Part shown: positions 8,211 to 40,535 of the stretch, in pieces
How the letters are laid out: every line of letters starts with the position of its first letter
Position numbering within the stretch: position 1 is the stretch's first letter
Virus record (IMG/VR): IMGVR_UViG_3300031576_000144
Location: 1-40,535 of that record
From: a virus
Strand: one strand, 5' to 3'
DNA: 40,535 bases
The notes under the pieces: generated by a model
The model's database searches: none
The model's input: the letters and a program-made list of their open reading frames with translations, nothing else
Told to the model about the DNA's origin: nothing
Made by a program: the position numbers and the translations under genes

Positions 8211-8409
8211 TCGCGCGATCCTTCCGCACTTGACCGATCATCTCCATCGCCTCGTTCACGGTCCATATCGAGACCTTGCCCTTGCCGTTGATCGCTTCAT
8301 TGCAGACGATGAGCACTCCTCGCTTGGCCTTCTTGTACATAACGAAGATCGGCAGAGTGAAGATGGTCGAACCCAGTAGGAATGATGCGATACATGCAAC
8401 CAGGGTCAC
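8191..8409 (-). CDS. Small membrane protein (72 aa)
   Basis: GTG start overlaps the stop of the fibre-like gene (GTGA). N-terminal hydrophobic helix LVACIASFLLGSTIFTLPIFVMY followed by a basic patch. Confidence 0.6.
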   Translation of the reverse strand: MTLVACIASFLLGSTIFTLPIFVMYKKAKRGVLIVCNEAINGKGKVSIWTVNEAMEMIGQVRKDRASGVGYK

Positions 8410-10724
8410 GACGCCAGCTTCGAGATGGCGATGAACACGCGATCCGTAGTCGCGCTAATCGTGGGAGTCCCGGCCGTGCTTTTGAGCTGTAACCGAATTG
8501 TGTCGCCGGAAGTTACAGACACCAGGTCACTCCCATGAGCGATTTCTGAAGCTGCTACCCCGGTCGTTCGATTGACAAACTCAGATTGCACCGTGCCATT
8601 CTTTTGAATTTGAGCGGCAACCGAGGACCCCGCGCCGAAGACCCCGTCAACTTCCACCAAGAAAAACACATTATAGTATCCGGTGGAAGGCACTGTGAAG
8701 GTACCCGCCGACATTGCACTATTGGTGTCAAAATCCGCCGTAGTCCAGGAGACAGTCGCGTAAGTGCTACTGATCGACGTTGCGCTACCATGATATCGAG
8801 CCCCGATGAGCGTCGGCGTGGGGGCACTCTGGTAGGTCGGGTCGGCGGCCGAGCCATTGCTCGTGAGCACTTGCCCAGAAGTCCCAGCCCCGGTAGATGT
8901 CATCGCGTTGGTTGCGCTCGCGATCACGACTCCTTGATTCGTCTGCCCCGAGATGGTCGTGTTTCCAGTCGCCGTGCCCACGAAACTAGACGCGGTCATG
9001 GTTGAAGTAGAAGTGACCGCACCGAAGAAGCCCGTACTCAGGTCTTGAGCGATCGACATCGCGGTAGCGGGTGTCACGCTCCCGTCTGGGGTCACCAGGA
9101 AGCTCAGTCTCCCAGGCATGTCGTTTGACCCAGGAGTGCCGTCAACCGTCGAAATAATTCGCGCTGTATTTTCGTAGTCCACTCCGTCATAGCCGAAGAA
9201 GTCAATTTGGCCAGAAGTGTCCCCGCTCGAAACAATCGTCGGGGCGGCAAAAGTCCCGCGAGATTTCGCAAACTGAAGTTTGCCGCTCTGGGTATTGGTT
9301 TGATGACGGATGACTCTGAACCCGCCTTGGTTTCCGTCGTTGTCATCGCTCACCGAATAGCTGGCGTAGTTCGCGGACCCTGAAACGGTTATCGGGTTAT
9401 CAGTCGGTGTAGTCCCCGCACCGAAGCGTAGCGTGTTACCCGACGCTGTCACGTTGAATTGACCAGTTGAATTCATCGACCCCGCTGCGGTGAGAGCTAC
9501 ACGGCTTGTAGCGTTTTGCTGAAAATCAAAAAGATTTCCGGTGAAACCCAAAGTCGCGTTGACGCCGAGTTCCGTACCGCTCGTACTCCACGCGGTTGAA
9601 GTCGCGCCGGACGGCTCGATCAGAAGGAAAGGTTTAGTCGTCGTCGAGGTGCCCCCAGTAAACGGGGCTCCGAAAAAATAGAGTGACGGAGTAGACGCCG
9701 CGCCTGGAGCCAATGTCCAAAACGGAACAGATGAAGCGACAAGGGTCGGAGTCATGGCGAATTTAGTAGCGCCATTCAGTTGAAAGTCGAAAAGATACCC
9801 GGTGAACCCGGAAGCGGCATTGACCCCTAGCGCGGTTCCGCTTGTGTTCCATCCTGTTGATGTCGTCCCAGTAGGCTCGATCAGCACATGAGGTTTAGTG
9901 GTCGTGGAGGTCCCCCCAGAGAACCACGATCCGCTCATTAACTGCGCTGGAGACGAGACGGTACTTGAAATGCCGGATAGTACCTGTCCGAAGAATTCAG
10001 AGATTTTACTACTATGCACCCGAAGAGCGATGACCGGGTCGAGAGATCCAGAGGCAGTCACTCTTAAGTTGATCCGTCCAGGCATACTGGTAGGGCTTGG
10101 AGTCCCGTCCGCTTCGGCACCGATGCTGGCAGCCGCCTCGAAACTCGTGCCCGTGTACCCGTTGTAAAAAGTAGTACCAAGGCCATTACCACTGGAGACA
10201 GCGAGAGGTGCTGCGTTGGTCCCCCTGGCCCTCGCTAGCATGATGATCGGATCAAACCCCGACGTAGAGTAGCTCTTCGCGAGGAGAGGAGCCTGATTGG
10301 TTCCAAGGTTATCGCTGGTTGAGAAACTTCCGAATAGAGTGAATGGGCCACCCGAGCCAGGAACACCGATCGTTATAGAATTATCCGTTGCGTTAGTCCC
10401 AGTGCTGAATCTGGCCGCACCGATGGCACCGTCGTTCTGAATTGTGCCGTTGAACTTAGCCCCCCTCCATCGGAATGGACCCGTGAGCGTCCCCAGATCG
10501 AACGCAGAGTCAGTCCCTGGGTTGATCGACGCGCTCGCAGCAGTAGATGCGATGTTGTTCAGCGTCGTCGTGGCTCCAGGAGAGAAACTCCCGGAAGTAA
10601 CACAGGTCGTATCAGGGAAACAGATTGCTGGAGTGAGAAGCTGAGCTCCGCTACCTCCCCAGATGATCGGCGGACCTGCGTGCGCGAGGGATGAGATGAA
10701 CAGGATCGGGAGGAAGAGATTCAT
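8406..10724 (-). CDS. Secreted tail-fibre-like protein with internal repeats and a C1q/TNF-like C-terminal domain
   Basis: True start taken as ATG 10724 (SD GTGAGG upstream). N-terminus MNLFLPILFISSLAHA|G looks like a Sec signal peptide. Fibre-type repeats (sRGTxAAPxxVSSGD...MPGRL, GGTSTTTKPxLIEP). The C-terminus (TFTVPSTGYYNVFF...SGDTIRLQL) is C1q-like. Confidence 0.65.
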   Translation of the reverse strand: MNLFLPILFISSLAHAGPPIIWGGSGAQLLTPAICFPDTTCVTSGSFSPGATTTLNNIASTAASASINPGTDSAFDLGTLTGPFRWRGAKFNGTIQNDGAIGAARFSTGTNATDNSITIGVPGSGGPFTLFGSFSTSDNLGTNQAPLLAKSYSTSGFDPIIMLARARGTNAAPLAVSSGNGLGTTFYNGYTGTSFEAAASIGAEADGTPSPTSMPGRINLRVTASGSLDPVIALRVHSSKISEFFGQVLSGISSTVSSPAQLMSGSWFSGGTSTTTKPHVLIEPTGTTSTGWNTSGTALGVNAASGFTGYLFDFQLNGATKFAMTPTLVASSVPFWTLAPGAASTPSLYFFGAPFTGGTSTTTKPFLLIEPSGATSTAWSTSGTELGVNATLGFTGNLFDFQQNATSRVALTAAGSMNSTGQFNVTASGNTLRFGAGTTPTDNPITVSGSANYASYSVSDDNDGNQGGFRVIRHQTNTQSGKLQFAKSRGTFAAPTIVSSGDTSGQIDFFGYDGVDYENTARIISTVDGTPGSNDMPGRLSFLVTPDGSVTPATAMSIAQDLSTGFFGAVTSTSTMTASSFVGTATGNTTISGQTNQGVVIASATNAMTSTGAGTSGQVLTSNGSAADPTYQSAPTPTLIGARYHGSATSISSTYATVSWTTADFDTNSAMSAGTFTVPSTGYYNVFFLVEVDGVFGAGSSVAAQIQKNGTVQSEFVNRTTGVAASEIAHGSDLVSVTSGDTIRLQLKSTAGTPTISATTDRVFIAISKLAS

Positions 10725-10732
10725 CGGATGCC

Positions 10733-11125
10733 TCACTGGTAGAAGTTGATATCGAGCTCGCCCGTGCTGGCCGTGCCAGAGATCGATCGGATGGAGACGC
10801 GAGCACCGCTGGGGACTCGGATCGGCACCTTGCCGTTCCCCCCGGGGATGATCTGAAATTGAGTGACCTCGGAACCCGAGGCTCCGAAGCCGATCTTCAG
10901 CGTCTGCCCGCTCGAGTCGAAGACCTCGATCTCGCTCGCGCTCTGGGGCATGGCCGAGACGAGCTGCACCCAGGCGGCCGTGGTGACGTTCGTGCTCGAG
11001 TAGACGTTCCTCACGGTGAGGATCGAGTACTTGCCGACGTCGCCCGAGCTTCCGGCGGCGAGGGTCTGGCGAGGGGTGGAGACACAGGCGGCGATCAGAG
11101 CGATCGCCAGGAGAAGGTTGCGCAT
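10733..11125 (-). CDS. Putative lipoprotein (130 aa)
   Basis: ATG 11125 has AAAGGAG 9 nt upstream. MRNLLLAIALIAAC has a lipobox (IAAC). The rest is a beta-rich Ser/Gly/Thr domain. The upstream 34 codons of the track ORF look non-coding. Confidence 0.6.
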   Translation of the reverse strand: MRNLLLAIALIAACVSTPRQTLAAGSSGDVGKYSILTVRNVYSSTNVTTAAWVQLVSAMPQSASEIEVFDSSGQTLKIGFGASGSEVTQFQIIPGGNGKVPIRVPSGARVSIRSISGTASTGELDINFYQ

Positions 11126-11269
11126 GGCGGGTGGACTCCTTTGACTTGATCCTACACAGCGATCTGCATTCGTCGAGCCCAAGGACGGGCGACGACTTGG
11201 GGCGCCGCCCGTCCTCCACCACCACAAGGAGGTGGCTCAAGGATCAGGCAGATCGGAGGAGCGGTCAAG

Positions 11270-12601
11270 TCAGCGCCGGATCACCCGGAGCCTGCCGACG
11301 TTCCCGACGGGGGTGATCGGGGTGAAGACGTGGATGCCGTACCCCACCGCGTCCGACCCGTGGGTGCGTTTGGGGTCCTTCTTCTTCTCGATCTCCCCGC
11401 TCATCCCCTTCCGCCAGCTCACCTTATCGTGGTCCTTCTTGAGCTCAGGGCTCCGCTTGGGGTTGAACCAGAACCGGACGGACCCGTCAGCCGACTTCAG
11501 CACGGCGTTGTAGGCGTTGACCCGGTCCTTCACGAAGGGGTTCGCCTCGGGCTTCTTCACGATGAAGGTGATACCCGCCTCGCTCAGGGCTCGGGTCACC
11601 AGGGAGTAGTCGGTCTCGCCCGCGGCCGAGCTCCGCCGGCCCGTGCCCGTGGCGTCACCGGTCAGGACGACCTGGGGGTTCGCCTTCGTGGGGAAGCCCT
11701 TGAGCCGCTCGACGAGCTCCTTCGCCTGCGCCTCCGTGTGGGTGTCCTCCACGCAGATCTCGTCGAAGATCCACCAGCTCTCGAGGTTCGTCTGCCCGAG
11801 CTCCCAGACCATGGGGTTCACGTTGAAGTCCATCATCACCACGATCGGGAGGGCGGGCGAGTAGAGCTTGCCCGGAGCGAACGGGCAGTCCTCGCGGAAG
11901 TTGTGAGCCCCCGCGCTGACGTACACCTTGCCGGCGAACATGTCGCGGAACTGAGCCTCGATCTCCTGGGCGAAGTAGGCCTCGGTGTACTTCGTGCGGA
12001 GACGGTTCACCTCGGCCATCGGGAAGGCTGGGTTGCACCAGGAGGGGGCGTTGATAAACTTAGACTCGGGATCATCCCGCATCTCCTCGGCCAGGTCATA
12101 GCAGTGATCGAACCCGTTTGGGGTCGTGAGGAACTTCGCGAACCCGTTCGTGGTCGAGAGCATCGGGCGGCAGATGTCCCATACCGAGGGCTTCATGTTG
12201 CGGTACTCGTCGAGGTAGATCCCGTCGAGGGTCTCCATGCGGAGGTTCTCCTCGAGCTCGGCCGAGAGGAAGAAGAAGGTCGATCCAGTGGTGAATGTGA
12301 AGTAGAGGTCCGACTTCGAGGCGTCTGCGACGTACTCGGAGCAGCTCGATAGAGCGCGCTTCACCCTTCGCCAGCCTATCTTGCACTGTCGGTAGGTAGG
12401 CAGGAGGTACCAGTAGGTCCGATGCTCGTGCTCCCAGGCGTTCTTCACCACGTCGTTCAGGCCGAAGGAGGTCTTCCCTGACTGCCGTCCCCAGAGGGAG
12501 AACAGAAATCGGCCGCGCCAGTCGTGCGCCTCCCGCTGTACCGCGTGCGGGTTGTACAGCTCCAGGGTATGGGTCTGGATCTGCCTGGCGGGTTCGTTCA
12601 C
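11270..12601 (-). CDS. terL: Terminase large subunit
   Basis: Walker A WGRQSGKTS, Walker B-like LDGIYLDE, C-terminal nuclease-like MMDFNVNP / LTGDATG / HGSDAVGY. 443 aa. Confidence 0.9.
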   Translation of the reverse strand: MNEPARQIQTHTLELYNPHAVQREAHDWRGRFLFSLWGRQSGKTSFGLNDVVKNAWEHEHRTYWYLLPTYRQCKIGWRRVKRALSSCSEYVADASKSDLYFTFTTGSTFFFLSAELEENLRMETLDGIYLDEYRNMKPSVWDICRPMLSTTNGFAKFLTTPNGFDHCYDLAEEMRDDPESKFINAPSWCNPAFPMAEVNRLRTKYTEAYFAQEIEAQFRDMFAGKVYVSAGAHNFREDCPFAPGKLYSPALPIVVMMDFNVNPMVWELGQTNLESWWIFDEICVEDTHTEAQAKELVERLKGFPTKANPQVVLTGDATGTGRRSSAAGETDYSLVTRALSEAGITFIVKKPEANPFVKDRVNAYNAVLKSADGSVRFWFNPKRSPELKKDHDKVSWRKGMSGEIEKKKDPKRTHGSDAVGYGIHVFTPITPVGNVGRLRVIRR

Positions 12602-13887
12602 CGCTTGCGCTTCGCCTCTCCGATCAGCTCGGCCTTCTTGCCCGAGTACTTCCGCCAGCGGGCGATGATCACGTCACAGTAGTTGGGGTCGATCTCCATC
12701 CCGAAGCAACGTACCTTCTCCTTCTCTGCGGCGATGAAGTTAGATCCTGACCCAGCGAACGGCTCGTATAGCACCTCTCCGGCCTTCAGATGGTTTCGGA
12801 TCGGTATGGCAAAGAGCTCCACCGGCTTTTGGGTGGGGTGGATCTTGTCATTCTCCCGGCCCACCTCCCAAACGGTCGACTGGTTCCGCTCCCCATAGAA
12901 TTGCGGCTCTTCCCCCTGCATCCACCCCATGAGGCAGAGTTCGTGGCGCCAGTGGTACTGGCCCCGACCGAACACAAAGCTGGGCTTCACCCAGATGATC
13001 TGGCGATGGAATAAGATACCGGCGGCGGCGGCGGCGGCGGCGGCGGCTTGCGAGAAGTATGCCTGCATCTTCATCGCGTGCCACATGTAGAACGCGAACC
13101 CCTTGCCCATGTGGGCCAACGACGTGGTGATCGCCTTGAGGATGAATGCACGAAGAGCCTCGTCCTGCAGCTCGTCGTTCTCGATCTTTTTGTACCCTTT
13201 CGCCTGACGCTTCTCGTTGGCTACCTCGACGTGGTTGATCCCATATGGTGGATCCGACGACCAGAGCATGGCCTTGTGATCGCCCATGAGCCGCCCCACC
13301 TGGGCCGCATCCGTCGAGTCCCCGCACATAAGTCGGTGGTCCCCGAGCTTGAATATCTGGCCGGGCTTCGTGCGCGCCTTCTCTCGCACGATCGGCACGT
13401 CATCCTCGGCCGCCCCCTTCGCGCTGAACATCACGTCCTTGAAGTACCCCCGACCGAAGTGCTCCGTGTCGATCCCAGGCACGTCGAAGGACTGGGCGAA
13501 GTCCTGGTAGCCGATCCCAGCGTCATGCATGAACTCGTACAGAGTCTCCTCCGCCGCGTGGCCGAACTGGGAGACGTTCGAGAGGAGGATCTTCTTCGCG
13601 TGCTTCGTGTCCCGGGCCTCGACGAAGACGACGGGGAGCGGCGGGATCGTTCGCTTCTTCGCCAGGCGCTTGAGGACGCGGATCCGCTGGTGCCCGTCGA
13701 GATTCCAGTGCTTCCCATTCGGGTCCTTCCAGACGTGGATCGGAGCCGTGATCCCATTATCGAGGATCAGCTCCTCGAGGCGCTTCGCGTTCTCATCACT
13801 AAGCGCCTTCAGGTTCCCCTGTAGCGCATGGATCTTGCTCATCGGGAGCGTCGCCGCCCCGGTACAGCTCACCTTGATCGCCTTCAC
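12598..13887 (-). CDS. ParB-like nuclease domain fused to a beta-class N6/N4 DNA methyltransferase
   Basis: N-terminal ParB-type motif (NLDGHQRIRVL), then the catalytic motif SSDPPYGI, then the AdoMet motif YEPFAGSGSNF near the C-terminus (motif IV before I). An internal Ala9 tract is present. Confidence 0.85.
   Translation of the reverse strand: MKAIKVSCTGAATLPMSKIHALQGNLKALSDENAKRLEELILDNGITAPIHVWKDPNGKHWNLDGHQRIRVLKRLAKKRTIPPLPVVFVEARDTKHAKKILLSNVSQFGHAAEETLYEFMHDAGIGYQDFAQSFDVPGIDTEHFGRGYFKDVMFSAKGAAEDDVPIVREKARTKPGQIFKLGDHRLMCGDSTDAAQVGRLMGDHKAMLWSSDPPYGINHVEVANEKRQAKGYKKIENDELQDEALRAFILKAITTSLAHMGKGFAFYMWHAMKMQAYFSQAAAAAAAAAGILFHRQIIWVKPSFVFGRGQYHWRHELCLMGWMQGEEPQFYGERNQSTVWEVGRENDKIHPTQKPVELFAIPIRNHLKAGEVLYEPFAGSGSNFIAAEKEKVRCFGMEIDPNYCDVIIARWRKYSGKKAELIGEAKRKR
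13021..13047. repeat. (GGC)9 trinucleotide repeat encoding Ala9 inside the methyltransferase gene
   Basis: Nine perfect GGC units read directly. On the minus strand they are GCC x9 = AAAAAAAAA in ...YFSQAAAAAAAAAGILFH... Confidence 0.95.
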
Positions 13888-17322: not shown

Positions 17323-17574
17323 TCATAATCGTTTGCCTTCCCGCTTCTCCTTCGCCCGCTTCATCGCCAGCCACTCCGGCCCCTCGGGGCACGCGTGGAC
17401 GTGGCTCACGAAGGCGTCGGTACGCACGGCCTTCATGTCTCCGAAGATGTCCTTCTCGATCGAGTAGCAAGCGGCCTTCCGGTCCAGCGGTACGGACTTC
17501 TTCGTGGAGTCGCAGTAGGCGAAGAAGATCATCCGGCGGCAGTCCTTGCAGGGGCGGATCGAGAGGTTGTTCAC
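17323..17574 (-). CDS. Small Cys/His-rich protein (83 aa)
   Basis: GTG 17574 overlaps the stop of the J-domain gene (GTGA). Contains CKDC ... HVHAC. The longer track ORF (to 17823) is an out-of-frame extension across the upstream gene. Confidence 0.6.
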   Translation of the reverse strand: MNNLSIRPCKDCRRMIFFAYCDSTKKSVPLDRKAACYSIEKDIFGDMKAVRTDAFVSHVHACPEGPEWLAMKRAKEKREGKRL

Positions 17575-18167
17575 GCGCCCTTCTCCGCCCGGGCCGTCTC
17601 GATCGCCCGGTTCATGGCCTGCATCTCCGCGGCATCCCCGCCCAGGTCCGGGTGCAGCTGCTTCGCCCGCATCTTGTAGGCGAACTCGATCGCATCCAGC
17701 GGCCACTCCTGAGAGCACCCCAGGACGGTCCACCAGTCCGGATCTGGCTCGACGTGGCCGGCTGGCGGGGGCAGAGCGGTGAAGCCCTGGAAGACCCGGT
17801 CGAGCATGTCGCTCGCGCCCCACCGATCCAGCCCGCGCATCGCCTCCACCGTGAGCCCGATCGCCCGGAGGTTATCCTCGATCCTCTCCCACCGGTCGCA
17901 GGCGATCGACAGCGGCCGGCCCTTGCGGTGGAAGTAAACCGCCACACCCGGGTCCTCGATCCTCCGCTCGGCCGCGTACGGCTGGCCGTCCTTTCGGATC
18001 GGCTGGTTGGTTGAGATGATCACGTTCGTGACTCGCATAAGTCGGAGCTCGTTCTGCACCGACCAGAGTCCGCCCGCCCAGGTCGACTTGAACTTCGCCC
18101 GGACTCGCCCGAGAGGCTTCGTCCTTTTGAACGCTACCGGCCAGTCCAGCGGATACGCTTCAGGCAT
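17571..18167 (-). CDS. J-domain (DnaJ-like) protein with an uncharacterised N-terminal domain
   Basis: ATG 18167 overlaps the upstream stop (ATGA). The C-terminus WWTVLGCSQEWPLDAIEFAYKMRAKQLHPDLGGD carries the HPD tripeptide in J-domain context. Confidence 0.7.
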   Translation of the reverse strand: MPEAYPLDWPVAFKRTKPLGRVRAKFKSTWAGGLWSVQNELRLMRVTNVIISTNQPIRKDGQPYAAERRIEDPGVAVYFHRKGRPLSIACDRWERIEDNLRAIGLTVEAMRGLDRWGASDMLDRVFQGFTALPPPAGHVEPDPDWWTVLGCSQEWPLDAIEFAYKMRAKQLHPDLGGDAAEMQAMNRAIETARAEKGA

Positions 18168-18658
18168 CAGTACGCCCCGCTCAGATTCTTGCCGTCGACT
18201 TCTGCCGGAGCCTCGGGCTTGAGCCACTTGCGCTTTAGCTTCTTGCCGGCCAGGGGGAGATCCGCCTGCCGCTCGGAGTCTTCCATCGCCCGCTCCTCGA
18301 CCATGAACCACTCGCCCTCGCGCTCGACATAGAAGCGGATCAGGTTCTGCTCGAAGACCTTCTGCATCACGCAGTCCACCAGCCTGAGCTCGGAGCCTGA
18401 CTTGATCTCGCCCAGGAGCCGGTCGCGGTCCTTCTGCACCCGGCGGATATTCGCGGCCGTGCCCTTCGCCTCCTCCTTCCAGCCCTCGATACTCTTCGCG
18501 CAGGTCGCCGCCTCCTGCGCCTTCTCGGCGATCTCCTTATCCGAGAGCGGGATCGTCAGCTCCTTCTGCAGGGCCACCCCCGTCGGCGCCTCCTTCATCA
18601 GCTTGAGCTTGCGCTCCTTGGGTGCCTTCGTCTTCGCTGCCTTCTTCGACTTGCTCAT
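18167..18658 (-). CDS. Hypothetical protein with a Lys-rich N-terminus (163 aa)
   Basis: ATG 18658 (MSKSKKAAKTKAPK...) is preceded by GAAAGGA. The upstream VTVTV part of the track ORF is a repeat-derived shadow. Confidence 0.65.
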   Translation of the reverse strand: MSKSKKAAKTKAPKERKLKLMKEAPTGVALQKELTIPLSDKEIAEKAQEAATCAKSIEGWKEEAKGTAANIRRVQKDRDRLLGEIKSGSELRLVDCVMQKVFEQNLIRFYVEREGEWFMVEERAMEDSERQADLPLAGKKLKRKWLKPEAPAEVDGKNLSGAY

Positions 18659-18677
18659 GCATTCCTTTCTGCTGTTC

Positions 18678-18941
18678 TCAGTCACCGTCACCGGAACCGT
18701 CACCGTCACCGGAACCGTCACCGGAACCGTCACCGGAACCGTCACCGTCACCGGAACCGTCACCGTCACCGTCACCAGAACCGTAACCGGAACCGTCACC
18801 GTAACCGGAACCGTCACCAGAACCGTAACCGGAGACGTAACCGTCACCGTAACCGGAACCGTCACCGTAACCGTAACCGGAACCGGAGACGTGCTGACTT
18901 TCCTCGCCGAGAGAACCGATCAGTCGCAGTGCTTCGCCCAT
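18678..18941 (-). CDS. Acidic (Gly-X)n dipeptide-repeat protein (87 aa)
   Basis: ATG 18941 has GAGGAGG 5 nt upstream. A 17-aa leader is followed by about 35 G-[D/S/Y] dipeptides encoded by the hexamer repeat. Confidence 0.55.
   Translation of the reverse strand: MGEALRLIGSLGEESQHVSGSGYGYGDGSGYGDGYVSGYGSGDGSGYGDGSGYGSGDGDGDGSGDGDGSGDGSGDGSGDGDGSGDGD
18681..18890. repeat. Tandem hexanucleotide repeat, 35 units (GTCACC / GGAACC / GTAACC variants)
   Basis: Parsed directly: 35 consecutive hexamers with the pattern NNNACC, using five variants. All three minus-strand frames stay open. Confidence 0.95.
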
Positions 18942-19677: not shown

Positions 19678-20042
19678 GACTCCTCCCTGGCGAGATACGC
19701 CTGCCGCTCGATATCCCGCGCGATCTGCTTCTTCCTAAGCTGCCTGCGCGCGGCCTCGATAAGGACGGTCGCTGCGTCCCGATACTCCTCCGCTGCCGCG
19801 TCCACGAGATCCTGATCTCCACTCTCGACTGCATCCCTCAGCCACCCTTCCGCTTCATCCCACTTCTCTCGGAGCCCGATGTCAGTCAGGGCATCCATCA
19901 GGGTGGGGAGCACCCGAAGGCCGAGTACCGCTTCGCCCCCCCGATCCCGAATACCTAACGACGTGAGCGCGAGCTCAACCTGATTTACGACGCGTCCGAA
20001 CTGCACGGCCGAGCACCTCCCCTTCGGTGTAGGTCGTTCCAT
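19674..20042 (-). CDS. Hypothetical protein (122 aa; start uncertain)
   Basis: ORF downstream of the helicase gene. ATG 20042 would overlap the helicase by 68 nt with a weak SD. Confidence 0.5.
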   Translation of the reverse strand: MERPTPKGRCSAVQFGRVVNQVELALTSLGIRDRGGEAVLGLRVLPTLMDALTDIGLREKWDEAEGWLRDAVESGDQDLVDAAAEEYRDAATVLIEAARRQLRKKQIARDIERQAYLAREES

Positions 20043-20892
20043 CGCTCGTGAAGATCAGCCGGTGATTCGTGTAGACCCCCCGCCGGCGCATCTTCCGGAG
20101 CGTGATCACCCGGTCAAGCGGAGTCCGGACGTCGTTCTCTATGTCCTCCTCGCTCGGCGGGTTGAAGAGCAGCACGTTCTGCGCCTCCTGCACCGAGGTG
20201 GATGAGCCCTTGATATCGTTCTCGCTCTCCACCAGGCCGTCGACCTTGCGCGGGTGCATGACCTGGATCCAGTGGATCGGGGCGTTCTTCGTGAAGTCGA
20301 TCATCCGGTGGGTCACCCGGTCCTGCTCGATCATCCAGGCGCGCTCGTCCTTCACCTCGAGGAAGTAGTTCAGGTTATCGGTGATCGCGATCGTGCACTG
20401 GTGGACCTGCTTCGCGTGCCAAATATCGTCCATCAGGATGTCGGGGTCCACGCGGTCGTCGTACACGCTGAGCTGGACCCGGTCCGTGAGGAAGAAGTCG
20501 GCGTGCTTCGAGTTGATCGACTGCAGGCGCTCCGCGTGGACAGAGTCCCCCGTGTTTACATCGAAGCCGTGGACCACGGAGATCATACGCTTCACGAAGT
20601 CCGAGTCTCCCGTCTCGACAGGGGCCACGAAGAGTCGGTGGCCTGCCATCACGAGCTGCACCGCGATATTAGCGAGCAGTGTGGTTTTTCCTACCCCCGT
20701 CCCGCCACAGAGAATCGAGTACTCACCTAGACGGAAGCCCCCTGTCAGCCAGTTGAACTTCGTCCAGTTGTAGAGCTTCGCCGATGGGAAGGGGCGCGCG
20801 AGCTCGCCCATGGCCTGCCCGTACACGTCGCCGATCGAGCGCATCCGGATCTTATGCTCTCGCTTCGGGCGGCGGTGGGGGGCCAGCTCCAT
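19975..20892 (-). CDS. DnaB-like / RecA-fold replicative helicase (P-loop ATPase)
   Basis: ATG 20892 overlaps the upstream stop (ATGA). Walker A CGGTGVGKTT. The layout resembles the DnaB C-terminal domain. No N-terminal DnaB domain or primase domain is present. Confidence 0.6.
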   Translation of the reverse strand: MELAPHRRPKREHKIRMRSIGDVYGQAMGELARPFPSAKLYNWTKFNWLTGGFRLGEYSILCGGTGVGKTTLLANIAVQLVMAGHRLFVAPVETGDSDFVKRMISVVHGFDVNTGDSVHAERLQSINSKHADFFLTDRVQLSVYDDRVDPDILMDDIWHAKQVHQCTIAITDNLNYFLEVKDERAWMIEQDRVTHRMIDFTKNAPIHWIQVMHPRKVDGLVESENDIKGSSTSVQEAQNVLLFNPPSEEDIENDVRTPLDRVITLRKMRRRGVYTNHRLIFTSDGTTYTEGEVLGRAVRTRRKSG

Positions 20893-21233
20893 CACGGGAT
20901 CACCTCTCCCGTGGAAGTCATGCCCGGGATCTGGATCGACTGACCTCCGCGGGGGGGATTGCCATTCGGCTTCAGCGGGTTCTCGATGAAGTCCTCCCAC
21001 TCGCCGGCGAAGGTGGAGAAGTGCTTCACGTACTGGTCCTCGGTCTGCTCCCGTCTCACCAGGGCAGCGTAGTGGAGGACCGCGAGCTGGAACTGAGCCA
21101 GGCGCTCGGGGGTCTTGATCTGGCGGAGGAGGCGGTCAACCCCCTTCTTCTTCCCGCGGTGCCGCGGGTACTGCAGGTACGCTTCCTCGATCGCGCGGCG
21201 GATCTGACTGCGATCCATGATCTCCATCTCCAA
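20892..21233 (-). CDS. Hypothetical protein (first gene after the terminator; possible helicase partner)
   Basis: 113-aa ORF coupled to the helicase gene. Three in-frame ATGs lie at the start (MEMEIMD) within GGAGATGGAGATCATG. Confidence 0.65.
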   Translation of the reverse strand: MEMEIMDRSQIRRAIEEAYLQYPRHRGKKKGVDRLLRQIKTPERLAQFQLAVLHYAALVRREQTEDQYVKHFSTFAGEWEDFIENPLKPNGNPPRGGQSIQIPGMTSTGEVIP

Positions 21234-21833: not shown

Positions 21834-22319
21834 ATGAACTCTGCTGAAGCAATGAGCGTGTGGACCGATGGATGTTGTATGCCGAACCCAGGAGTCGGTG
21901 GCTGGGCGTGGGTCACTCGAGCGGGGATGCGAGGACCGCACGCTCAAGGCAGAGATGCCTTCTCGACCAACCAGCGGATGGAACTCATGGCTGTGATTCA
22001 CGCGCTCGAGCAGAACCCTGGCGCGCCTATGCGGATCCACTCTGACAGCCAGTACGTGATCCTCGGAGCCACGAAGTGGTCGAGGAGCTGGCTGGCAAAC
22101 GGTTGGAAGAATTCGCAGCGAAAGGATGTCGCGAACCGCGAGCTCTGGGAGCGCCTCCTGCGTTCTATAGCCGGCCGGTCGATCGAGTTTATTTGGGTCA
22201 AAGGCCACTCCGGGGATGAGATGAATGACCTGGCTGACGATCTCGCCACGCAGGCTACGCGCCTGAATCCTAAAGTGATTGAGCGATACCGACGAATGTA
22301 CCATGGAGCGCCCGCTTAA
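21834..22319 (+). CDS. rnhA: Ribonuclease HI
   Basis: WTDGCCMPNPGVGGWA, TNQRMELMAVIHAL, IHSDSQYV, WVKGHSGDEMNDLADDLA give the complete RNase H1 motif set (D-E-D-D). SD AAGGAGA upstream. Confidence 0.9.
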   Translation: MNSAEAMSVWTDGCCMPNPGVGGWAWVTRAGMRGPHAQGRDAFSTNQRMELMAVIHALEQNPGAPMRIHSDSQYVILGATKWSRSWLANGWKNSQRKDVANRELWERLLRSIAGRSIEFIWVKGHSGDEMNDLADDLATQATRLNPKVIERYRRMYHGAPA

Positions 22320-24438: not shown

Positions 24439-24661
24439 GGGCGCGAGCTCCTTTGGTTGAAACCCTTCTACCCCGGGCGAGCTCGCGGATCACCCAAGGT
24501 AGAAGGGTCGAAGCGGACACAGGCCATGACACTCATGTGGGGAGAAAAACCCGGACCCGCTGGATAGCTGCGGACCCTAATATATAGGCCGGCGGAGTGG
24601 AAGTGGAAAGTAATGTCACAGTGTGATATCATGACATCAGAAGTAGAAGGAGTACCCCGCC
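24439..24661. promoter_or_regulatory. Divergent early control region (putative promoters and operators)
   Basis: This 223-bp gap is the only divergent one. Contains an 11-bp inverted repeat 24462-24472/24498-24508 enclosing palindrome GCGAGCTCGC (24477-24486), the AT-rich box TAATATATAGG, palindrome TCACAGTGTGA (24616-24626) and ATGTCA-N13-TGACAT. Confidence 0.55.
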
Positions 24662-24826
24662 ATGAAGTTCATCCTCGTCTCTGTCCACGGCACGGACCAG
24701 AACCCCCTGCAGCAGATCACCTATCTCTCCTCGTTCTCCGACCTGATCTCTGCGATCACCGCGCTACACACGATCCGCGATCGCAACCCGAGCCAGACCT
24801 TCTCCCTCCTCCAGGTGCTCGCGTGA
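24662..24826 (+). CDS. Small hypothetical protein (54 aa), first gene of the plus-strand operon
   Basis: Not in the track. SD GAAGGAG lies 7 nt upstream. Translation MKFILVSVHGTDQNPLQQITYLSSFSDLISAITALHTIRDRNPSQTFSLLQVLA. Third positions are strongly G/C-rich, unlike the overlapping 133-aa track ORF. Confidence 0.6.
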   Translation: MKFILVSVHGTDQNPLQQITYLSSFSDLISAITALHTIRDRNPSQTFSLLQVLA

Positions 24827-25014
24827 GGGAGACATATTTGGGCGATGGGCTGTACGCACGTGATGAAGGCTTCCAGATCTGGCTTCGCGCCCCACAAGGA
24901 GGTGGCGTCGATCACGAGGTAGCGCTAGAACCCGAGGTCCTGTTTGAATTTTTCAAGTTCATTGAGCGGACCCGAGGCCTAAAGATCACTATCGAAGAAG
25001 CTGTGAAGCCATGA
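24823..25014 (+). CDS. Small hypothetical protein (63 aa)
   Basis: GTG overlaps the upstream stop (GTGA). This is the C-terminal part of track ORF 24613..25014 (RETYLGDGLYARDEGFQIWL...). The codon bias is only moderate. Confidence 0.4.
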   Translation: MRETYLGDGLYARDEGFQIWLRAPQGGGVDHEVALEPEVLFEFFKFIERTRGLKITIEEAVKP

Positions 25015-25184
25015 TCATCTTCGCCGTCGCCCTGGTCGGAGTCTGGATCGCCTATGAGGTCGGGCACTGGAGAGGCCATCGAGGAGCTGTCCGCCGCGGG
25101 ATCGAGTCTCTTCAACGCCGATCAGATGAACTTGAGCGGCAGTACCAGGCTCTCCTATCCCGCTTCGAAAGGAAGGACCGGTGA
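25011..25184 (+). CDS. Possible small membrane protein (57 aa), in conflict with the 5' end of the next gene
   Basis: ATGA overlap with the upstream stop. MIIFAVALVGVWIAYEV is TM-like. The codon bias is good for the first 14 codons only, and it overlaps 25054..26067. Confidence 0.3.
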   Translation: MIIFAVALVGVWIAYEVGHWRGHRGAVRRGIESLQRRSDELERQYQALLSRFERKDR

Positions 25185-26067
25185 GCAGGTGAAGATCGAG
25201 TACACCCCGAAGAAGTTCAAGCCGTCGACGCTCGCCATGATCGAGCAGGCGAACGTGATCATAGCCGACTACCAAGCCCAGGGCTTCGAGCTCACCCTCC
25301 GCCAGCTCTACTACCAGTTCGTTTCCCGGGACCTGATCCCAAACACGCAGCGGTCCTACAAAATCCTGGGCTCCGCGATCAACGACGGCCGTCTGGCCGG
25401 GCTGATCGACTGGGAAGCGATCGTCGATCGCACGCGCAACCTGCAGAGGAACTCGCACTGGGACTCCCCGGCTGAGATTGTTGAGACCTGCGTGAAGTCC
25501 TACGCGATCGATAAGTGGGCCGATCAGGAGAACCGCCCCGAGGTCTGGATCGAGAAGGACGCCCTCGCCGGCGTGATCGAGGGCGTCTGCCGACGGAACG
25601 ACGTCAGTTACTTCTCGTGCCGTGGATACACCAGCCAGAGCGAAATGCACGCGGCAGCTCTCCGGCTGATGCGATACCAGGAGAACGGCCAGACCCCCGT
25701 GATCATCCACCTCGGCGACCACGATCCCAGCGGCGTGGACATGACCCGGGATATCCAGGACCGGCTCGAGCTCTTCACTCGCGGCGAGCTCACGGTGAAC
25801 CGCATCGCCCTGAACATGGACCAGATCCGGAAACACAAGCCCCCGCCGAACCCATCGAAGATCACCGACCCCAGGGCGACGGGCTATCTCAAGATCCACG
25901 GCCGCCAGTCCTGGGAACTCGACGCGCTTGAGCCAAAGGTGCTCGACCGCTTGATCGAACGAACGATCATGGCACTTCGTGATGACGCCCTATGGGAGGC
26001 GGCGGAGGCCAGAGAGGCAGCGGATAAAGACGAGCTGCGAGAAGCAGCGGAGAGGATGGGTCATTGA
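25054..26067 (+). CDS. Stand-alone Topo VI-A / Spo11-like protein (5Y-CAP + Toprim; Mini-A-like)
   Basis: TLRQLYYQF (candidate catalytic Tyr in a winged-helix context), Toprim Glu in VWIEKDALAGV and DxD in IIHLGDHDPSGVDM, in the same order as Topo VI-A. Alternative start GTG 25189 follows GGAAGGA. Confidence 0.55.
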   Translation: MRSGTGEAIEELSAAGSSLFNADQMNLSGSTRLSYPASKGRTGEQVKIEYTPKKFKPSTLAMIEQANVIIADYQAQGFELTLRQLYYQFVSRDLIPNTQRSYKILGSAINDGRLAGLIDWEAIVDRTRNLQRNSHWDSPAEIVETCVKSYAIDKWADQENRPEVWIEKDALAGVIEGVCRRNDVSYFSCRGYTSQSEMHAAALRLMRYQENGQTPVIIHLGDHDPSGVDMTRDIQDRLELFTRGELTVNRIALNMDQIRKHKPPPNPSKITDPRATGYLKIHGRQSWELDALEPKVLDRLIERTIMALRDDALWEAAEAREAADKDELREAAERMGH

Positions 26068-26354
26068 TCACCTTCACCCAGTTCGTGCGGCCCTTCGGTC
26101 GGCCGAGAGAGAACTCAATCTTGCGGCCCGGGCCGATTGAGGTGATGGCGATCGAGCTCCACGAGGCCGGCTTCCGGTTCGAGATGGAGGAGCTCCAGAC
26201 TGGCGAGGTGAGCTTCGAGATCGTTCACCGCGATGATCAGGACCACGAGCGCGCGACGATGCGTATCTGCCCGAACGGACCCCAGGTTCCAGCGACAGTC
26301 GACGACCTGATCACGGCCGCGCATCAGCGGTGGAAGGATGGCGTATGCGGATGA
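26064..26354 (+). CDS. Hypothetical protein (96 aa)
   Basis: TTG start overlaps the upstream stop. Third positions are G/C-rich throughout. Confidence 0.6.
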   Translation: MITFTQFVRPFGRPRENSILRPGPIEVMAIELHEAGFRFEMEELQTGEVSFEIVHRDDQDHERATMRICPNGPQVPATVDDLITAAHQRWKDGVCG

Positions 26355-40007: not shown

Positions 40008-40502
40008 TCATGCCCCCATGAAGTACTTCTTCAGCGCCTTGCGCATCTTATCGATCGTGACCTTCCCGAATCGCATGTAGGGGCGGATCTTGTTCGTGAA
40101 CTTAGCATACGAGAACGGTCGGCCCTTATACGCTGCGACCTGCACCCCTGGATCGAGGGACACCTCGAACACCTTCGGGGTGATGAGCCGGCGGTGGGCG
40201 GTCAGGTCTTCACCAGTCACGTTCTTCACCAGGAAAGAGGACTGAACCATCATGACATTCCCGGCTCCAGGAGCTCCGGCCCACCGTTTCCGCTTGCTGA
40301 TCTTCGTCGCTGGACTCAGCTCCGCCCAGCGGTCCCCCTCGCTGGAGTTCTCCGTCTCCCACCGCCGCTTCTGGGAGGCGACATAGATCTTGTAGATGTC
40401 CCTGGCGAACATGGCCTGAGCGTTCCCAGCCTTCGCGACCAGGCCCTTGTGGAACTCCTCTACCGCGTTCTTCGTGTTGATGAGTCCAGATTTCCCAGCC
40501 AT
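40008..40502 (-). CDS. Head-tail joining / virion morphogenesis protein (HK97 gp10 / Mu gpG-like)
   Basis: 164 aa. The segment RRWETENSSEGDRWAELSPATKISKRK...VMMVQSSFL resembles virion-morphogenesis/tail-completion families. Its start codon lies in the terminal repeat. Confidence 0.45.
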   Translation of the reverse strand: MAGKSGLINTKNAVEEFHKGLVAKAGNAQAMFARDIYKIYVASQKRRWETENSSEGDRWAELSPATKISKRKRWAGAPGAGNVMMVQSSFLVKNVTGEDLTAHRRLITPKVFEVSLDPGVQVAAYKGRPFSYAKFTNKIRPYMRFGKVTIDKMRKALKKYFMGA

Positions 40503-40535
40503 CAGCCTTCACCGTTCGCACGAACGACGAGCTCG
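40409..40535. repeat. Terminal direct repeat, copy 2 (identical to 1-127)
   Basis: Same 127 nt as the window start. The unit genome length is therefore 40408 bp. Confidence 0.95.

Follow-up and report, generated by a model that had tools for sequence, protein, structure and literature searches.

A gene on the plus strand of the window, the whole 40,535-nt stretch of viral DNA analysed here (IMG/VR record IMGVR_UViG_3300031576_000144), almost certainly encodes a member of Mini-A, the subfamily of type IIB topoisomerase A-subunit homologues described by Takahashi et al. in 2019 (PMC7671362). Taking all observations together, we lean slightly toward the explanation that Mini-A acts as a gated tyrosine transesterase on the phage's own DNA, in replication or recombination. 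A sequence-only reading of the window had proposed a stand-alone, Mini-A-type relative of Topo VI-A and Spo11, and this proposal was borne out: the tyrosine, the Toprim glutamate and the DxD motif are in place and no B subunit accompanies them. The novelty that it implied was overstated, since a description of the family dates from 2019 and its members in RefSeq phage records already bear the label "DNA topoisomerase"; the gene adds a clean, complete-genome example to an existing category. In two respects the findings extend the published account of Mini-A. Judged from the sequences, Mini-A retains both halves of the recently described Top6A clasp, and the family recurs as a core gene in Zot-bearing elements without a recognisable Rep.

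Extent of the gene and membership of the Mini-A family

The 337-aa ORF at 25054..26067 (+) that had been read as the gene exists and contains the motifs RQLYY, VWIEKDA, GDHDPSG and SWELDAL; its start, however, probably lies 135 nt further downstream, at GTG 25189. Nearly all homologues are about 291 aa long with their start aligned to query residues 46-50, the Shine-Dalgarno sequence AGGAAGGA precedes GTG 25189 by 11 nt, and this codon stands 5 nt beyond the stop of an upstream 57-aa ORF. On these grounds the true coding sequence is most likely the 292-aa frame with the GTG start, which probably leaves the first 45 residues of the annotated ORF untranslated. Codon composition speaks strongly for coding, with a GC1/2/3 of 0.62/0.40/0.84 in the core as against 0.49/0.58/0.76 in the N-terminal extension, which overlaps the 57-aa ORF in a different frame. 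Translation of the 57-aa ORF is probably coupled to that of Mini-A. Neither this ORF nor the 96-aa ORF downstream matched a Pfam or PHROG family, and the latter is not conserved beside Mini-A in other loci. The features are collected in Table 1; residue numbers of the catalytic positions (R83, Y87, E167, D222, D224 and E288) follow the annotated 337-aa ORF.

Table 1. Positions of the Mini-A gene, its predicted domains and motifs, and adjoining features in the window
Feature	Position	Strand	Basis or remark
Promoter-like site heading the rightward Mini-A operon	24604..24632	+	Consensus match only, 9/12 with extended-10 TG
57-aa ORF with hydrophobic N-terminus (MIIFAVALVGVWIAY...)	25011..25184	+	Directly upstream of Mini-A; putative gene
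N-terminal extension from ATG 25054, probably outside the protein	25054..25188	+	No homologue counterpart; atypical composition
Shine-Dalgarno-like AGGAAGGA serving GTG 25189	25170..25177	+	Read from sequence
Most likely Mini-A CDS (292 aa plus stop)	25189..26067	+	Homologue lengths, Shine-Dalgarno, phrog_6247 coverage, AlphaFold pLDDT 94.8
N-terminal winged-helix (5Y-CAP-like) domain with R83 and Y87	25189..25524	+	Motif, AF2 secondary structure, hhalign
R83-Q-L-Y86-Y87 motif	25300..25314	+	R83 and Y87 invariant
Toprim domain with C-terminal T2BI/WELDAL element	25525..25932	+	Beta-alpha-beta model topology; Top6A PDB matches
E167, Toprim glutamate, equivalent to Top6A E202	25552..25554	+	Invariant; E-to-E in co-linear hhalign path
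D222-H-D224-P-S-G227, Toprim DxDxxG metal site	25717..25734	+	D222, D224 and G227 invariant in all sets
W287-E288-L-D290-A-L, Mini-A signature T2BI box	25912..25929	+	xWELDAL signature (PMC7671362)
C-terminal helix pair, H249-263 and H266-291	25933..26064	+	AF2; length varies among homologues
96-aa ORF, downstream operon partner	26064..26354	+	Start overlaps the Mini-A stop codon

The assignment to Mini-A draws on several comparisons, which together go far beyond chance. The protein matched phrog_6247, annotated as "DNA topoisomerase", at E=1.3e-110 over residues 46-334, and tblastn retrieved the archaeal entry LC711082.1 (BDI55143.1, "Topo Mini-A/DNA topoisomerase VI, Type II") at E=2e-24 and, weakly, LC711081.1 ("Topo mini-A"). 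More than 8000 relatives are present in the databases, with 7,747 representatives at the 50% identity level, and Mini-A clusters occur in tailed phages, filamentous-type elements, Streptomyces plasmids and archaeal viruses; the window protein shares no more than 70% identity with any other database protein and no more than 54% with any from an isolated phage. The subfamily was first found via Topo VIII queries and is characterised by an xWELDAL T2BI box (PMC7671362). All seven of the defining Mini-A features that we tested were found here (7/7): a length of 292 aa, close to the approximately 300 aa expected of Mini-A and shorter than the approximately 370-400 aa of Top6A; the RxxY/FY motif (R83-Q-L-Y-Y87); the Toprim residues (E167, followed by the DxDxxG sequence D222-H-D224-P-S-G227); the T2BI box (S-W-E-L-D-A-L, residues 286-292); encoding by a virus, with the major head protein, portal, large terminase and tail fibre on the same 40.4-kb circle; the absence of a nearby B subunit; and homology to proteins named Mini-A.

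Predicted catalytic residues and the distant kinship to Topo VI-A

The motifs lie where the sequence-only reading had placed them: RQLYY comprises residues 83-87, with the codons of Y86 and Y87 at 25309-25314; VWIEK comprises residues 164-168, with the codon of E167 at 25552-25554; and GDHDPSG comprises residues 221-227, with the codons of D222 and D224 spanning 25717-25725. Conservation was assessed in two sets, one of 59 close homologues and one of 29 members, six of them at 20-29% identity. R83, Y87, R113, E167, G191, S194, D222, D224 and G227 are invariant in both sets (59/59 and 29/29), E288 is kept in 59/59 and 27/29, and the W, E and D of the WELDAL box are kept in 57-59 of the 59 sequences; all four motifs occur together in 364 of 386 near-full-length homologues. 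The tyrosine, glutamate and aspartates on which the earlier proposal rested are therefore conserved down to 20% identity, in the form of Y87, E167, D222 and D224. Of the paired tyrosines only Y87 is conserved and of the catalytic type; Y86 is present in 51/59 and 19/29 sequences and is replaced by F, H, W, C and others.

In the Top6A of Methanosarcina mazei (M. mazei), the catalytic tyrosine is Y106, the acidic tetrad is E202/D254/D256/E342, and R102 and E342 form a clasp; the E342Q variant cleaves far more readily than the wild type (PMC13040014). R83, Y87, E167, D222, D224 and E288 keep the Top6A order at comparable distances, and all of them are invariant or close to it; the intervals between the ordered catalytic residues are 80/55/64 residues in Mini-A and 96/52/86 in Top6A. 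The R(+4)Y spacing is that of R102/Y106, and Y87 is the predicted catalytic tyrosine (counterpart of Y106), with R83 as the predicted clasp and DNA-contact arginine (counterpart of R102). The DxDxxG motif aligned with FTDGDPWS of Top6A, D222 and D224 being the predicted counterparts of D254 and D256. From the motif order and spacing, E288 is predicted to correspond to E342, which in Top6A is both the fourth acidic residue and the arginine's partner in the clasp and falls in the equivalent C-terminal box KKKAEQQA.

The AlphaFold model of the 292-aa protein has a pLDDT of 94.8. Its N-terminal domain consists of helices 12-30, 37-46 (which holds Y87) and 54-69 plus a wing, that is, a helix-turn-helix with a wing, and in its Toprim domain E167 comes right after strand 1 and D222xD224 right after strand 3. 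The C-terminal helix pair may be a dimerisation or partner-binding element. The 5Y-CAP-like assignment of the N-terminal domain is based on the motif, the secondary structure and an hhalign comparison with the Top6A N-domain (P=0.0032), in which ..LTLRQLYY lies over ..STLREIYY and the alignment ends on YY. This N-terminal part is short: only approximately 23 residues precede the region aligned to Top6A columns 47-65, and the hhalign alignment to Top6A begins at about column 47-83.

At the sequence level, the kinship to Topo VI-A is distant, and homology is much weaker than the list of motifs suggests. Pfam and NCBIfam scans of the window protein gave no match even at E<=10. The recurrent sub-threshold Pfam matches among the 59 homologues were TP6A_N (6/59, best 0.059), DUF2399 (the JetD Toprim) and DUF7281, and the Toprim Pfam model was seen in 1/59. 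Both phmmer and the 59-sequence profile, searched against all PDB sequences, returned chance matches only (E about 0.6-0.8) and no Top6A. A whole-protein hhalign comparison with a 30-sequence Top6A profile gave P=0.027 (probability 1.9%) and was not improved by the six added members at 20-29% identity (P=0.03). The per-domain comparisons with Top6A gave P=0.0032 and 0.025, as against P=0.37-0.43 in cross-domain controls, and at a permissive threshold hhalign produced one co-linear path with the tyrosine, the glutamate and the DxD in register.

Structure searches gave a firmer result for the Toprim domain. Foldseek with the full-length model found nothing in the PDB at E<=1e-3 (best E about 1e-2); aspartate aminotransferase and PurE headed that list, at a TM of about 0.2. 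With the Toprim domain of the model, the best PDB match was M. mazei Top6A (9o0g_C, E=1.5e-4, TM 0.53, 174/176 columns) and the second another Top6A chain (9o8p_A, E=3.5e-4); both have prob 1.00, TM 0.53-0.54 and 171-174/176 columns, and the remaining PDB matches have E>=8e-3. Because the Toprim-only model retrieved Top6A, we regard the full-length miss as a failure of sensitivity and ranking. The search of BFVD gave one significant match, an unnamed 152-aa protein, the others being weak; a full-length Mini-A match was not found there, and DnaG/TOPRIM proteins made up 7 of the top 50 matches. The profile and structure comparisons thus divided, with Pfam, the PDB profile search and full-length Foldseek failing and the Toprim-only model retrieving Top6A. 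The Toprim fold was recovered, Top6A being the best PDB match of the domain model, and the model indicates that this fold is of the Top6A type.

Replication setting and candidate roles of Mini-A

The genome is complete and circular (40.4 kb): its two ends repeat each other (1-127 identical to 40409-40535), and an independent ENA contig matches it in rotated form, with 0 mismatches in 17,341 bases. Pfam and PHROGs searches of all ORFs of at least 150 aa in this complete circle found no GHKL/HATPase domain, in agreement with the earlier statement that no such partner is encoded. The Mini-A gene adjoins genes for ERF, SSB, RNase H, a DnaB-like helicase and an initiator-like protein, and is transcribed divergently from the ERF-SSB block; RusA is also encoded in the genome. 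The sequence-only reading had spoken of an accessory operon; the gene stands beside a replication/recombination module and not in an obvious accessory or defence island, and no PADLOC model matches. The GC content of the region equals that of the rest of the genome, and the region therefore bears no mark of a recently acquired island. We looked for iterons or a nick site near the gene, but nothing convincing emerged: the upstream intergenic region has one 19-nt hairpin, and the only repeats are short and in two copies.

By analogy with Top6A, two protomers would dimerise to form a DNA-binding channel, in which E167, D222 and D224 of one protomer would hold Mg2+ and Y87 of the other would attack the phosphodiester and become covalently joined to the 5' phosphate; this link would make the break reversible. 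That the protein is an active covalent tyrosine transesterase is, in our judgement, likely. R83 would stand in for R102 and E288 for E342, so that both halves of the electrostatic clasp appear to be conserved; cleavage is therefore probably gated rather than constitutive. Without a B subunit to open the clasp, the trigger could be DNA geometry (a bend, a supercoil or a hairpin) or a further partner. In what is the least certain step, a site- or structure-specific nick or break would be made in phage DNA, and it might either prime rolling-circle (sigma) replication in the style of the HUH Reps or feed the neighbouring ERF/SSB recombination machinery. We place a role in the element's own replication or recombination at a little short of an even chance, and the more specific role of a rolling-circle nickase appears doubtful. 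We found no published biochemical activity for any Mini-A, and a 2024 review still calls the topic unexplored.

Among the roles listed by the sequence-only reading, replication initiation gains some circumstantial support, and defence or attack does not. A rolling-circle initiator role has been proposed for the Mini-A of a skuldvirus (bioRxiv 10.1101/2021.07.29.453957). Mini-A is present, and a recognisable Rep absent, in an 8.8-kb archaeal circle and in four Zot-bearing, unidirectional 9-15-kb Paenibacillus-type elements with a filamentous-phage-like look. These four elements form a single lineage and are not four independent observations. The small replicons each carry large unannotated ORFs (519 aa, 427 aa), which could be unrecognised Reps. 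Full replication modules are present in many Mini-A phages. The window phage encodes its own initiator-like protein (phrog_270, E=2.7e-6) beside the helicase, and Mini-A would thus be dispensable here as the primary initiator.

A wider and rather speculative proposal is that Mini-A constitutes a separate, non-HUH class of replication-initiating nickases, which would make a gated, covalent 5'-phosphotyrosyl nick on a 5Y-CAP/Toprim chassis. If this were true, a nick at a bent or hairpin origin would start rolling-circle replication; Mini-A would serve some filamentous-phage-like and small archaeal replicons as their only Rep, and tailed phages such as the window phage as the theta-to-sigma switch; and the stand-alone A subunit would be a plausible ancestor of the Topo VI and Spo11 cleavage core.

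The neighbourhoods of other Mini-A genes bear on the alternatives to a gated transesterase. When 1,484 ORFs of 80 related loci were clustered by BLAST, no conserved "Mini-B" neighbour emerged and no neighbour family was shared by more than 10/81 loci; among 131 immediate neighbours, a Pfam census counted HTH domains in 7 and helicase domains in 3-4. Elsewhere, the neighbours include helicases, a YqaJ exonuclease, a sliding clamp, a polymerase and methyltransferases. One neighbour cluster (c13) contains the sequence EFVANAID, which resembles a GHKL N-box; it has no GHKL match in Pfam and was dropped as a chance match. An SF2 helicase as the partner of Mini-A was likewise rejected because adjacency is too rare (3-4/131 neighbours).

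Unlikely, in our estimate, is a Spo11-like dimer that makes double-strand breaks in phage DNA or its replicated copies, to be processed by the ERF annealase, SSB and RusA into recombination-dependent replication and concatemers for the terminase. The adjacent divergent ERF-SSB block and the presence of RusA suit such a break maker, as do the YqaJ-type exonucleases and annealase-type modules near Mini-A elsewhere, and the chemistry would be that of Spo11 (the sequence of which was verified against 8URQ), an enzyme that works with a degenerate B-like partner. Recombination genes, however, are not consistently linked to Mini-A, at most 10/81 loci sharing any neighbour family; a capped 5' end needs a dedicated removal pathway, of which none is evident; and the small filamentous-type and archaeal replicons have Mini-A without recombinases.

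A conflict nuclease of the JetD/MksG or OLD/GajA kind, destroying host, plasmid or competing-phage DNA in takeover, superinfection exclusion or anti-defence, seems quite unlikely. DUF2399, the C-terminal Toprim of JetD, was matched below threshold in 5/59 homologues (best E=0.0029), some homologues carry the UniRef label "Wadjet protein JetD C-terminal domain-containing", and small operon-partner ORFs without a known family would be in keeping with it. Against this, PADLOC models gave no match at E<=10, an SMC-like or ATPase partner is absent from the genome, the composition of the region shows no mark of an island, Mini-A is retained as a core gene in very small replicons, and the invariant tyrosine and clasp residues suggest reversible gated cleavage over hydrolytic destruction.

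Just as unlikely is a true topoisomerase that manages phage DNA topology, either by recruiting a "Mini-B" (a host GHKL protein, or a phage helicase as ATPase) or by ATP-free relaxation through nicking and closing. RefSeq and PHROGs name the family "DNA topoisomerase", SF2 helicases adjoin Mini-A in a Cupriavidus prophage and in clusters c2, c3 and c8, and conservation of the clasp suggests an external trigger. Nevertheless, the N-terminal 5Y-CAP segment that binds Top6B is missing from Mini-A (PMC7671362), the complete genome has no GHKL protein, the second gate or toroid for strand passage is absent, and neighbouring genes offer no conserved family and helicase domains in only 3-4 of 131 cases. 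A catalytically silent DNA-binding protein, as the label "DNA binding protein" on homologues in some Microbacterium and Curtobacterium phage records and the absence of any activity ever shown for Mini-A might suggest, is very hard to credit, because the R, Y, E, DxD and E set is invariant at 20-70% identity and is hard to explain without catalysis.

Mini-A is among the largest phage protein families whose active site is clearly enzymatic and fully conserved but for which no activity has been demonstrated, and it is the minimal natural form of the cleavage core common to Topo VI, Spo11 and the Wadjet nuclease. Spo11 initiates meiotic recombination, and ATPase-free gating, once known, would show how cleavage of the Spo11 type is controlled. 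The gating of Mini-A might also reveal a new route by which mobile elements start replication.

Comparison with known systems

The HUH Reps resemble the proposed gated transesterase by functional analogy only, in their 5'-phosphotyrosyl link, metal-dependent catalysis and occurrence in small circular replicons and phages. The folds are unrelated, the window protein having a predicted winged helix, a Toprim domain and no HUH motif; it gave no Rep-family match in Pfam or PHROGs, and the window phage has a separate initiator-like gene. OLD/GajA proteins differ by a fused N-terminal ABC-type ATPase, which is absent from the 292-aa window protein (no match in Pfam or PADLOC).

JetD/MksG proteins are alike in using a Top6A-like CAP and Toprim pair without a GHKL subunit, and weak DUF2399 matches were seen in 5/59 Mini-A homologues. 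JetD works with the JetABC SMC motor, and its cleavage is hydrolytic and is not known to depend on a conserved catalytic tyrosine. The JetD models of PADLOC gave no match at E<=10, DUF2399 is absent from the window protein, and SMC-like JetC and kleisin-type JetA/JetB partners are absent from the complete genome and from the flanks of 66-67 related loci. Topo VIII, which was compared by description, is a plasmid-borne type IIB relative from mobile elements that likewise lacks the first 5Y-CAP part; it differs in its fused or adjacent B moiety with GHKL and transducer domains and in its RVELNAM box, as against WELDAL in Mini-A.

Top6A and Spo11 share with the window protein the Toprim fold, the order of the catalytic residues (R(+4)Y, E, DxD and a C-terminal Glu) and, as would be expected, a 5'-phosphotyrosyl intermediate. 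The window protein is about 80-100 residues shorter and without the B-docking 5Y-CAP part; it is virus-borne, has no Top6B/GHKL partner, falls below threshold for Pfam TP6A_N and Toprim, and carries WELDAL as its T2BI box where Top6A has its own version. From the Mini-A proteins already described (PMC7671362; phrog_6247) there is no essential difference: the length of about 290-300 aa, the motifs, the encoding by a virus and the lack of a B subunit are all the same.

Gene boundaries and family membership

The ORF that the sequence-only reading had assigned to a stand-alone, Spo11-like protein of the Mini-A type is present in the window and encodes 337 aa (the numbering used here), and the GC content by codon position of its core (0.62/0.40/0.84) is as expected for a real gene in a genome of 62% GC. 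The RQLYY, VWIEK and GDHDPSG codons lie where that reading had placed them, and a fourth motif that it did not name, SWELDAL, proves the most diagnostic of the four. The ORF itself stands, but its annotated start probably does not: the 120 best database relatives are ~291 aa long, and their alignments, like those of the 150 best representatives at the 50% level, start at query residues 46-50; furthermore, AGGAAGGA precedes GTG 25189 with a spacing of 11 nt, and this GTG lies 5 nt past the stop of the upstream 57-aa ORF. The protein is therefore most likely the 292-aa form.

Mini-A proteins, as described by Takahashi et al. in 2019 (PMC7671362), are virus-borne homologs of the type IIB topoisomerase A subunit of ~300 aa, which carry the motifs RxxY/FY, E and DxDxxG and a C-terminal "T2BI" box with the Mini-A-specific sequence xWELDAL, and which have neither the first part of 5Y-CAP nor any B subunit. 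Because all of these features are found in the window protein, it is a Mini-A; the earlier identification was correct, with a Toprim fold recovered and Y87, E167, D222 and D224 conserved. The novelty that it implied was overstated, because the family has been known since 2019 and already has a PHROGs entry and a name in RefSeq, where phage homologs are often labeled "DNA topoisomerase". The PHROGs family phrog_6247 ("DNA topoisomerase") matched residues 46-334 at E=1.3e-110. No other database sequence is more than 70% identical to the window protein, and no isolated phage more than 54%.

A word-indexed database search returned at least 8000 candidate relatives, and HMMER, run exhaustively over 1.84 billion representatives, returned 7,747 clusters at E<=1e-3 (1,259 at E<=1e-30). 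By tblastn, the family occurs in 83 isolated phages (of Pseudomonas, Xylella, Salmonella, Flavobacterium, Brevundimonas, Roseobacter, Microbacterium, Listeria and others) and in 69 plasmid records; in the plasmid collection, an archaeal protein deposited as "Topo Mini-A/DNA topoisomerase VI, Type II" matched at E=2e-24. Fifty-four of the plasmid records (H43-H96; e.g. L084, NZ_CP108601.1, and L087, pNO33, NC_006571.1) hold a divergent clade, at 24-31% identity, on Streptomyces plasmids, among them large linear ones and pNO33, a conjugative plasmid of 37 kb, and in which the gene is always annotated "hypothetical protein". This clade looks under-appreciated, because the literature describes Mini-A as viral. 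Several homologs (e.g. P0397, P0417, P0499) are named "DUF2399 domain-containing protein" or "Wadjet protein JetD C-terminal domain-containing" in UniRef; automated surveys may therefore mistake prophage Mini-A genes for defense (Wadjet) components.

Positions of the Mini-A gene, its motifs and other features of the phage genome
Feature	Position	Strand	Remarks
Tail-fibre-like ORF	8406-11240	-	944 aa; phrog_18345, E=2e-26; weak, sub-threshold C1q-like match at C-terminus, E=6e-4; between head-morphogenesis and terminase genes, in lowest-GC part of genome (0.563); position unusual for a fibre, may point to a swapped host-range module
ParB-methyltransferase fusion	12598-13887	-	429 aa; ParB-like N-terminal matches; DNA methyltransferase, phrog_498, E=3e-99; adjoins large terminase
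ORF	17571-18311	-	~240 aa; phrog_9210, E=4e-54; sub-threshold DnaJ-domain match at C-terminus, E=1.7e-4
ORF	18167-18865	-	~240 aa; overlaps previous ORF by 145 nt, so one of the two starts is probably mis-set
DnaB-like/AAA_25 helicase ORF	19975-21000	-	
Initiator-like ORF	20892-21233	-	108-113 aa; matches only C-terminal third of phrog_270 replication-initiation proteins (positions 175-258 of 383, E=2.7e-6); directly upstream of, and overlapping, the helicase ORF; possibly a minimal or truncated form of initiator
RNase H gene (PF00075)	21834-22319	+	lone + strand gene amid - strand replication/recombination block; stop overlaps end of convergent SSB gene
Inverted repeat	24462-24508		19 nt, 84% complementary, 9-nt loop; between ERF operon (-) and Mini-A operon (+); could be an operator, terminator or origin-like hairpin
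AT-rich stretch	~24578-24590		just downstream of inverted repeat
Promoter-like site	24604-24632		Mini-A operon; just downstream of inverted repeat
ORF	24613..25014		stop overlaps ATG of next ORF (ATGA)
57-aa ORF	25011-25184	+	hydrophobic, transmembrane-like N-terminus (MIIFAVALVGVWIAY); overlaps annotated Mini-A 5' end; no family match; uncertain as a real gene
Mini-A ORF as annotated	25054..26067	+	337 aa
Mini-A CDS, most likely form	25189..26067	+	292 aa
RQLYY	residues 83-87	+	translated ORF
VWIEK	residues 164-168	+	translated ORF; E167
GDHDPSG	residues 221-227	+	translated ORF; D222, D224
SWELDAL	residues 286-292	+	translated ORF
Region of Toprim-domain model	25456-25983		176 aa

Relationship to the topoisomerase VI A subunit

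The window protein had no Pfam or NCBIfam match even at E<=10, and the topoisomerase VI A subunit (Top6A) was found among 177,635 PDB sequences neither by phmmer nor by a 59-sequence profile. The Spo11/Top6A superfamily is very divergent: a Spo11 query, checked by its match to PDB 8URQ (E=2e-265), reached Top6A by phmmer only at E=1e-4 to 0.03. The stretch of M. mazei Top6A matched in this Spo11 search was used as bait for Top6A proteins with PF04406, PF20768 and PF21180, and the Top6A profile comprised 30 aligned proteins. In the profile-profile comparison suggested by the sequence-only reading, the whole protein aligned weakly by hhalign (P=0.027, probability 1.9%), with LGDHDPSG on FTDGDPWS, and a permissive threshold gave a single co-linear path pairing RQLYY with REMYY, the Toprim E with E and DxD with DxD. 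Taken domain by domain, the N domains aligned at P=0.0032 (IIADYQAQGFELTLRQLYY on LIKEHLKNNRGSTLREIYY) and the C domains at P=0.025, against 0.43 and 0.37 for two cross-domain controls. The most recurrent weak Pfam matches of the 59 homologs were TP6A_N (6), DUF2399, the JetD Toprim (5), and DUF7281 (2), which is also found on genuine Top6A proteins.

The full-length AlphaFold model was confident (pLDDT 94.8, pTM 0.82) but retrieved nothing from the PDB by Foldseek at E<=1e-3, and from BFVD only weak DnaG/TOPRIM domain matches (7 of the 50 best). When the putative Toprim and WELDAL region was modeled by itself (pLDDT 93.0), its two best PDB matches were both M. mazei Top6A (9O0G_C, E=1.5e-4; 9O8P_A, E=3.5e-4; probability 1.00, TM 0.53-0.54 over 171-174 of 176 residues), and the remainder began at E=8e-3 with TM <=0.37, except for three TIR-domain chains (0.42-0.44). 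A Top6A-type Toprim fold is thus confirmed in the predicted structure. The predicted secondary structure places Y87 on helix two of a unit made up of three helices and a wing; this placement, the motif and the N-domain alignment support a putative assignment of the N domain to 5Y-CAP.

Genomic setting

Bases 1-127 recur as 40409-40535 in an exact 127-bp direct terminal repeat, and the independent ENA contig k141_2009330 (40,537 bp) holds the window sequence in rotated form, without a mismatch in 17,341 bases; the window thus represents a tailed phage genome assembled completely, as a circle of 40,408 bp. Its genes include those for major head protein, protease, portal, TerL, tail fibre, RusA, RNase H, SSB, ERF, the ParB-methyltransferase fusion and a DnaB-like helicase adjoining the initiator-like protein. 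No tRNA genes were found in the window, the ORFs scanned included no integrase, and no ORF of at least 150 aa in the complete genome matched GHKL, which agrees with the earlier claim that an ATPase partner is absent.

The Mini-A gene stands in a replication-module context, in a rightward operon (~24.6-27.5 kb) divergent from ERF-SSB; the other ORFs of the Mini-A operon had no family match. Across this and 80 related IMG/VR loci, no neighbor family was conserved in more than 10 of 81, and a universal "Mini-B" is absent; the neighbors that recurred belonged to replication and recombination, namely SF2 and UvrD-like helicases, YqaJ exonuclease, sliding clamp, polymerase, methyltransferases and HTH regulators.

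Active site and proposed activity

Residues invariant in the 59 homologs (43-70% identity) include R83, Y87, E167, K168, D222, H223, D224, S226, G227, E288 and D290. In a second set (n=29), to which six members at 20-29% identity were added (two archaeal "Topo mini-A", two Streptomyces, one Cupriavidus and one Rubrobacter), R83, Y87, R113, E167, G191, S194, D222, D224 and G227 were still invariant and E288 was kept in 27. The catalytic Glu and Asp residues proposed by the sequence-only reading are therefore conserved down to these divergent members. Of its paired tyrosines, Y87 held but Y86 varied (Y, F, H, W, C and other residues), so that the pair reduces to one catalytic-type tyrosine.

In a 2026 cryo-EM study of Topo VI (PMC13040014), the catalytic tyrosine of Top6A is Y106, the acidic tetrad is E202/D254/D256/E342, and an R102-E342 "electrostatic clasp" keeps the tyrosine off DNA; the E342Q protein cleaves far more readily than wild type. 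In our Top6A alignment, E342 maps to the C-terminal box KKKAEQQA, that is, the T2BI box. R83, Y87, E167, D222, D224 and E288 reproduce the Top6A set in identical order, with the same R+4=Y spacing and catalytic-residue spacings of 80/55/64 against 96/52/86 in Top6A. Both halves of the clasp thus seem to be conserved in a B-subunit-free protein. In alignment A3, which contains divergent members, the Rubrobacter (L086) and pNO33 sequences show Q at the E288 column (..TTQAEAM.., ..TVQAEAL..) and E two residues on, which reflects either a shift in the alignment or a naturally occurring counterpart of E342Q.

No activity has been published for any Mini-A, and a 2024 review describes the question as unexplored. 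Medvedeva et al. (bioRxiv 10.1101/2021.07.29.453957) proposed that skuldvirus Mini-A starts rolling-circle replication like an HUH endonuclease. Only two genes of an archaeal circle of 8.8 kb exceed 300 aa, and Mini-A is one of them. In the 15,151-bp circle of Paenibacillus durus (L089, NZ_CP009289.1), all genes lie on one strand, Mini-A is 58% identical to that of the window, and a Zot ATPase is present (35.1 bits; cut-off 20.3). Zot is a hallmark of filamentous phages, which replicate by rolling circle. The Zot...Mini-A synteny recurs in three metagenomic contigs (L090, L091, L092), where Mini-A (74-85% identity) keeps every motif; with the P. durus circle, these unidirectional elements of 9-15 kb form one lineage of four, and no replication initiator (Rep) was recognizable in them by Pfam/PHROG. 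Mini-A may be their Rep, although a large unannotated ORF in each could be an unrecognized one, and the window phage has its own initiator-like protein; the support for rolling-circle initiation is circumstantial.

The best-supported reading is a gated Y87 transesterase whose substrate would be the DNA of its own element, in the course of replication or recombination. We infer that Mini-A would be dimeric and Mg2+-dependent, that Y87 would form a 5'-phosphotyrosyl link, and that the R83-E288 clasp would gate cleavage until released by DNA geometry or some further factor. A Spo11-like break maker feeding the ERF and SSB proteins encoded alongside is unlikely. We give a still lower probability to a JetD-type conflict nuclease, against which speak the invariance of the tyrosine and of the clasp, the failure of PADLOC to match and the place of Mini-A as a core gene in very small replicons, and, equally, to a true topoisomerase whose partner has gone unseen, given that the B-docking segment is missing and that no neighbor is conserved. 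A silent DNA binder is very improbable.

The present analysis adds to the published description of Mini-A a corrected start codon, the conservation of Y87 alone of the tyrosine pair, and the retention of the Top6A clasp residues together with the recurrent association with Zot elements, which both give a testable hypothesis a sharper form.
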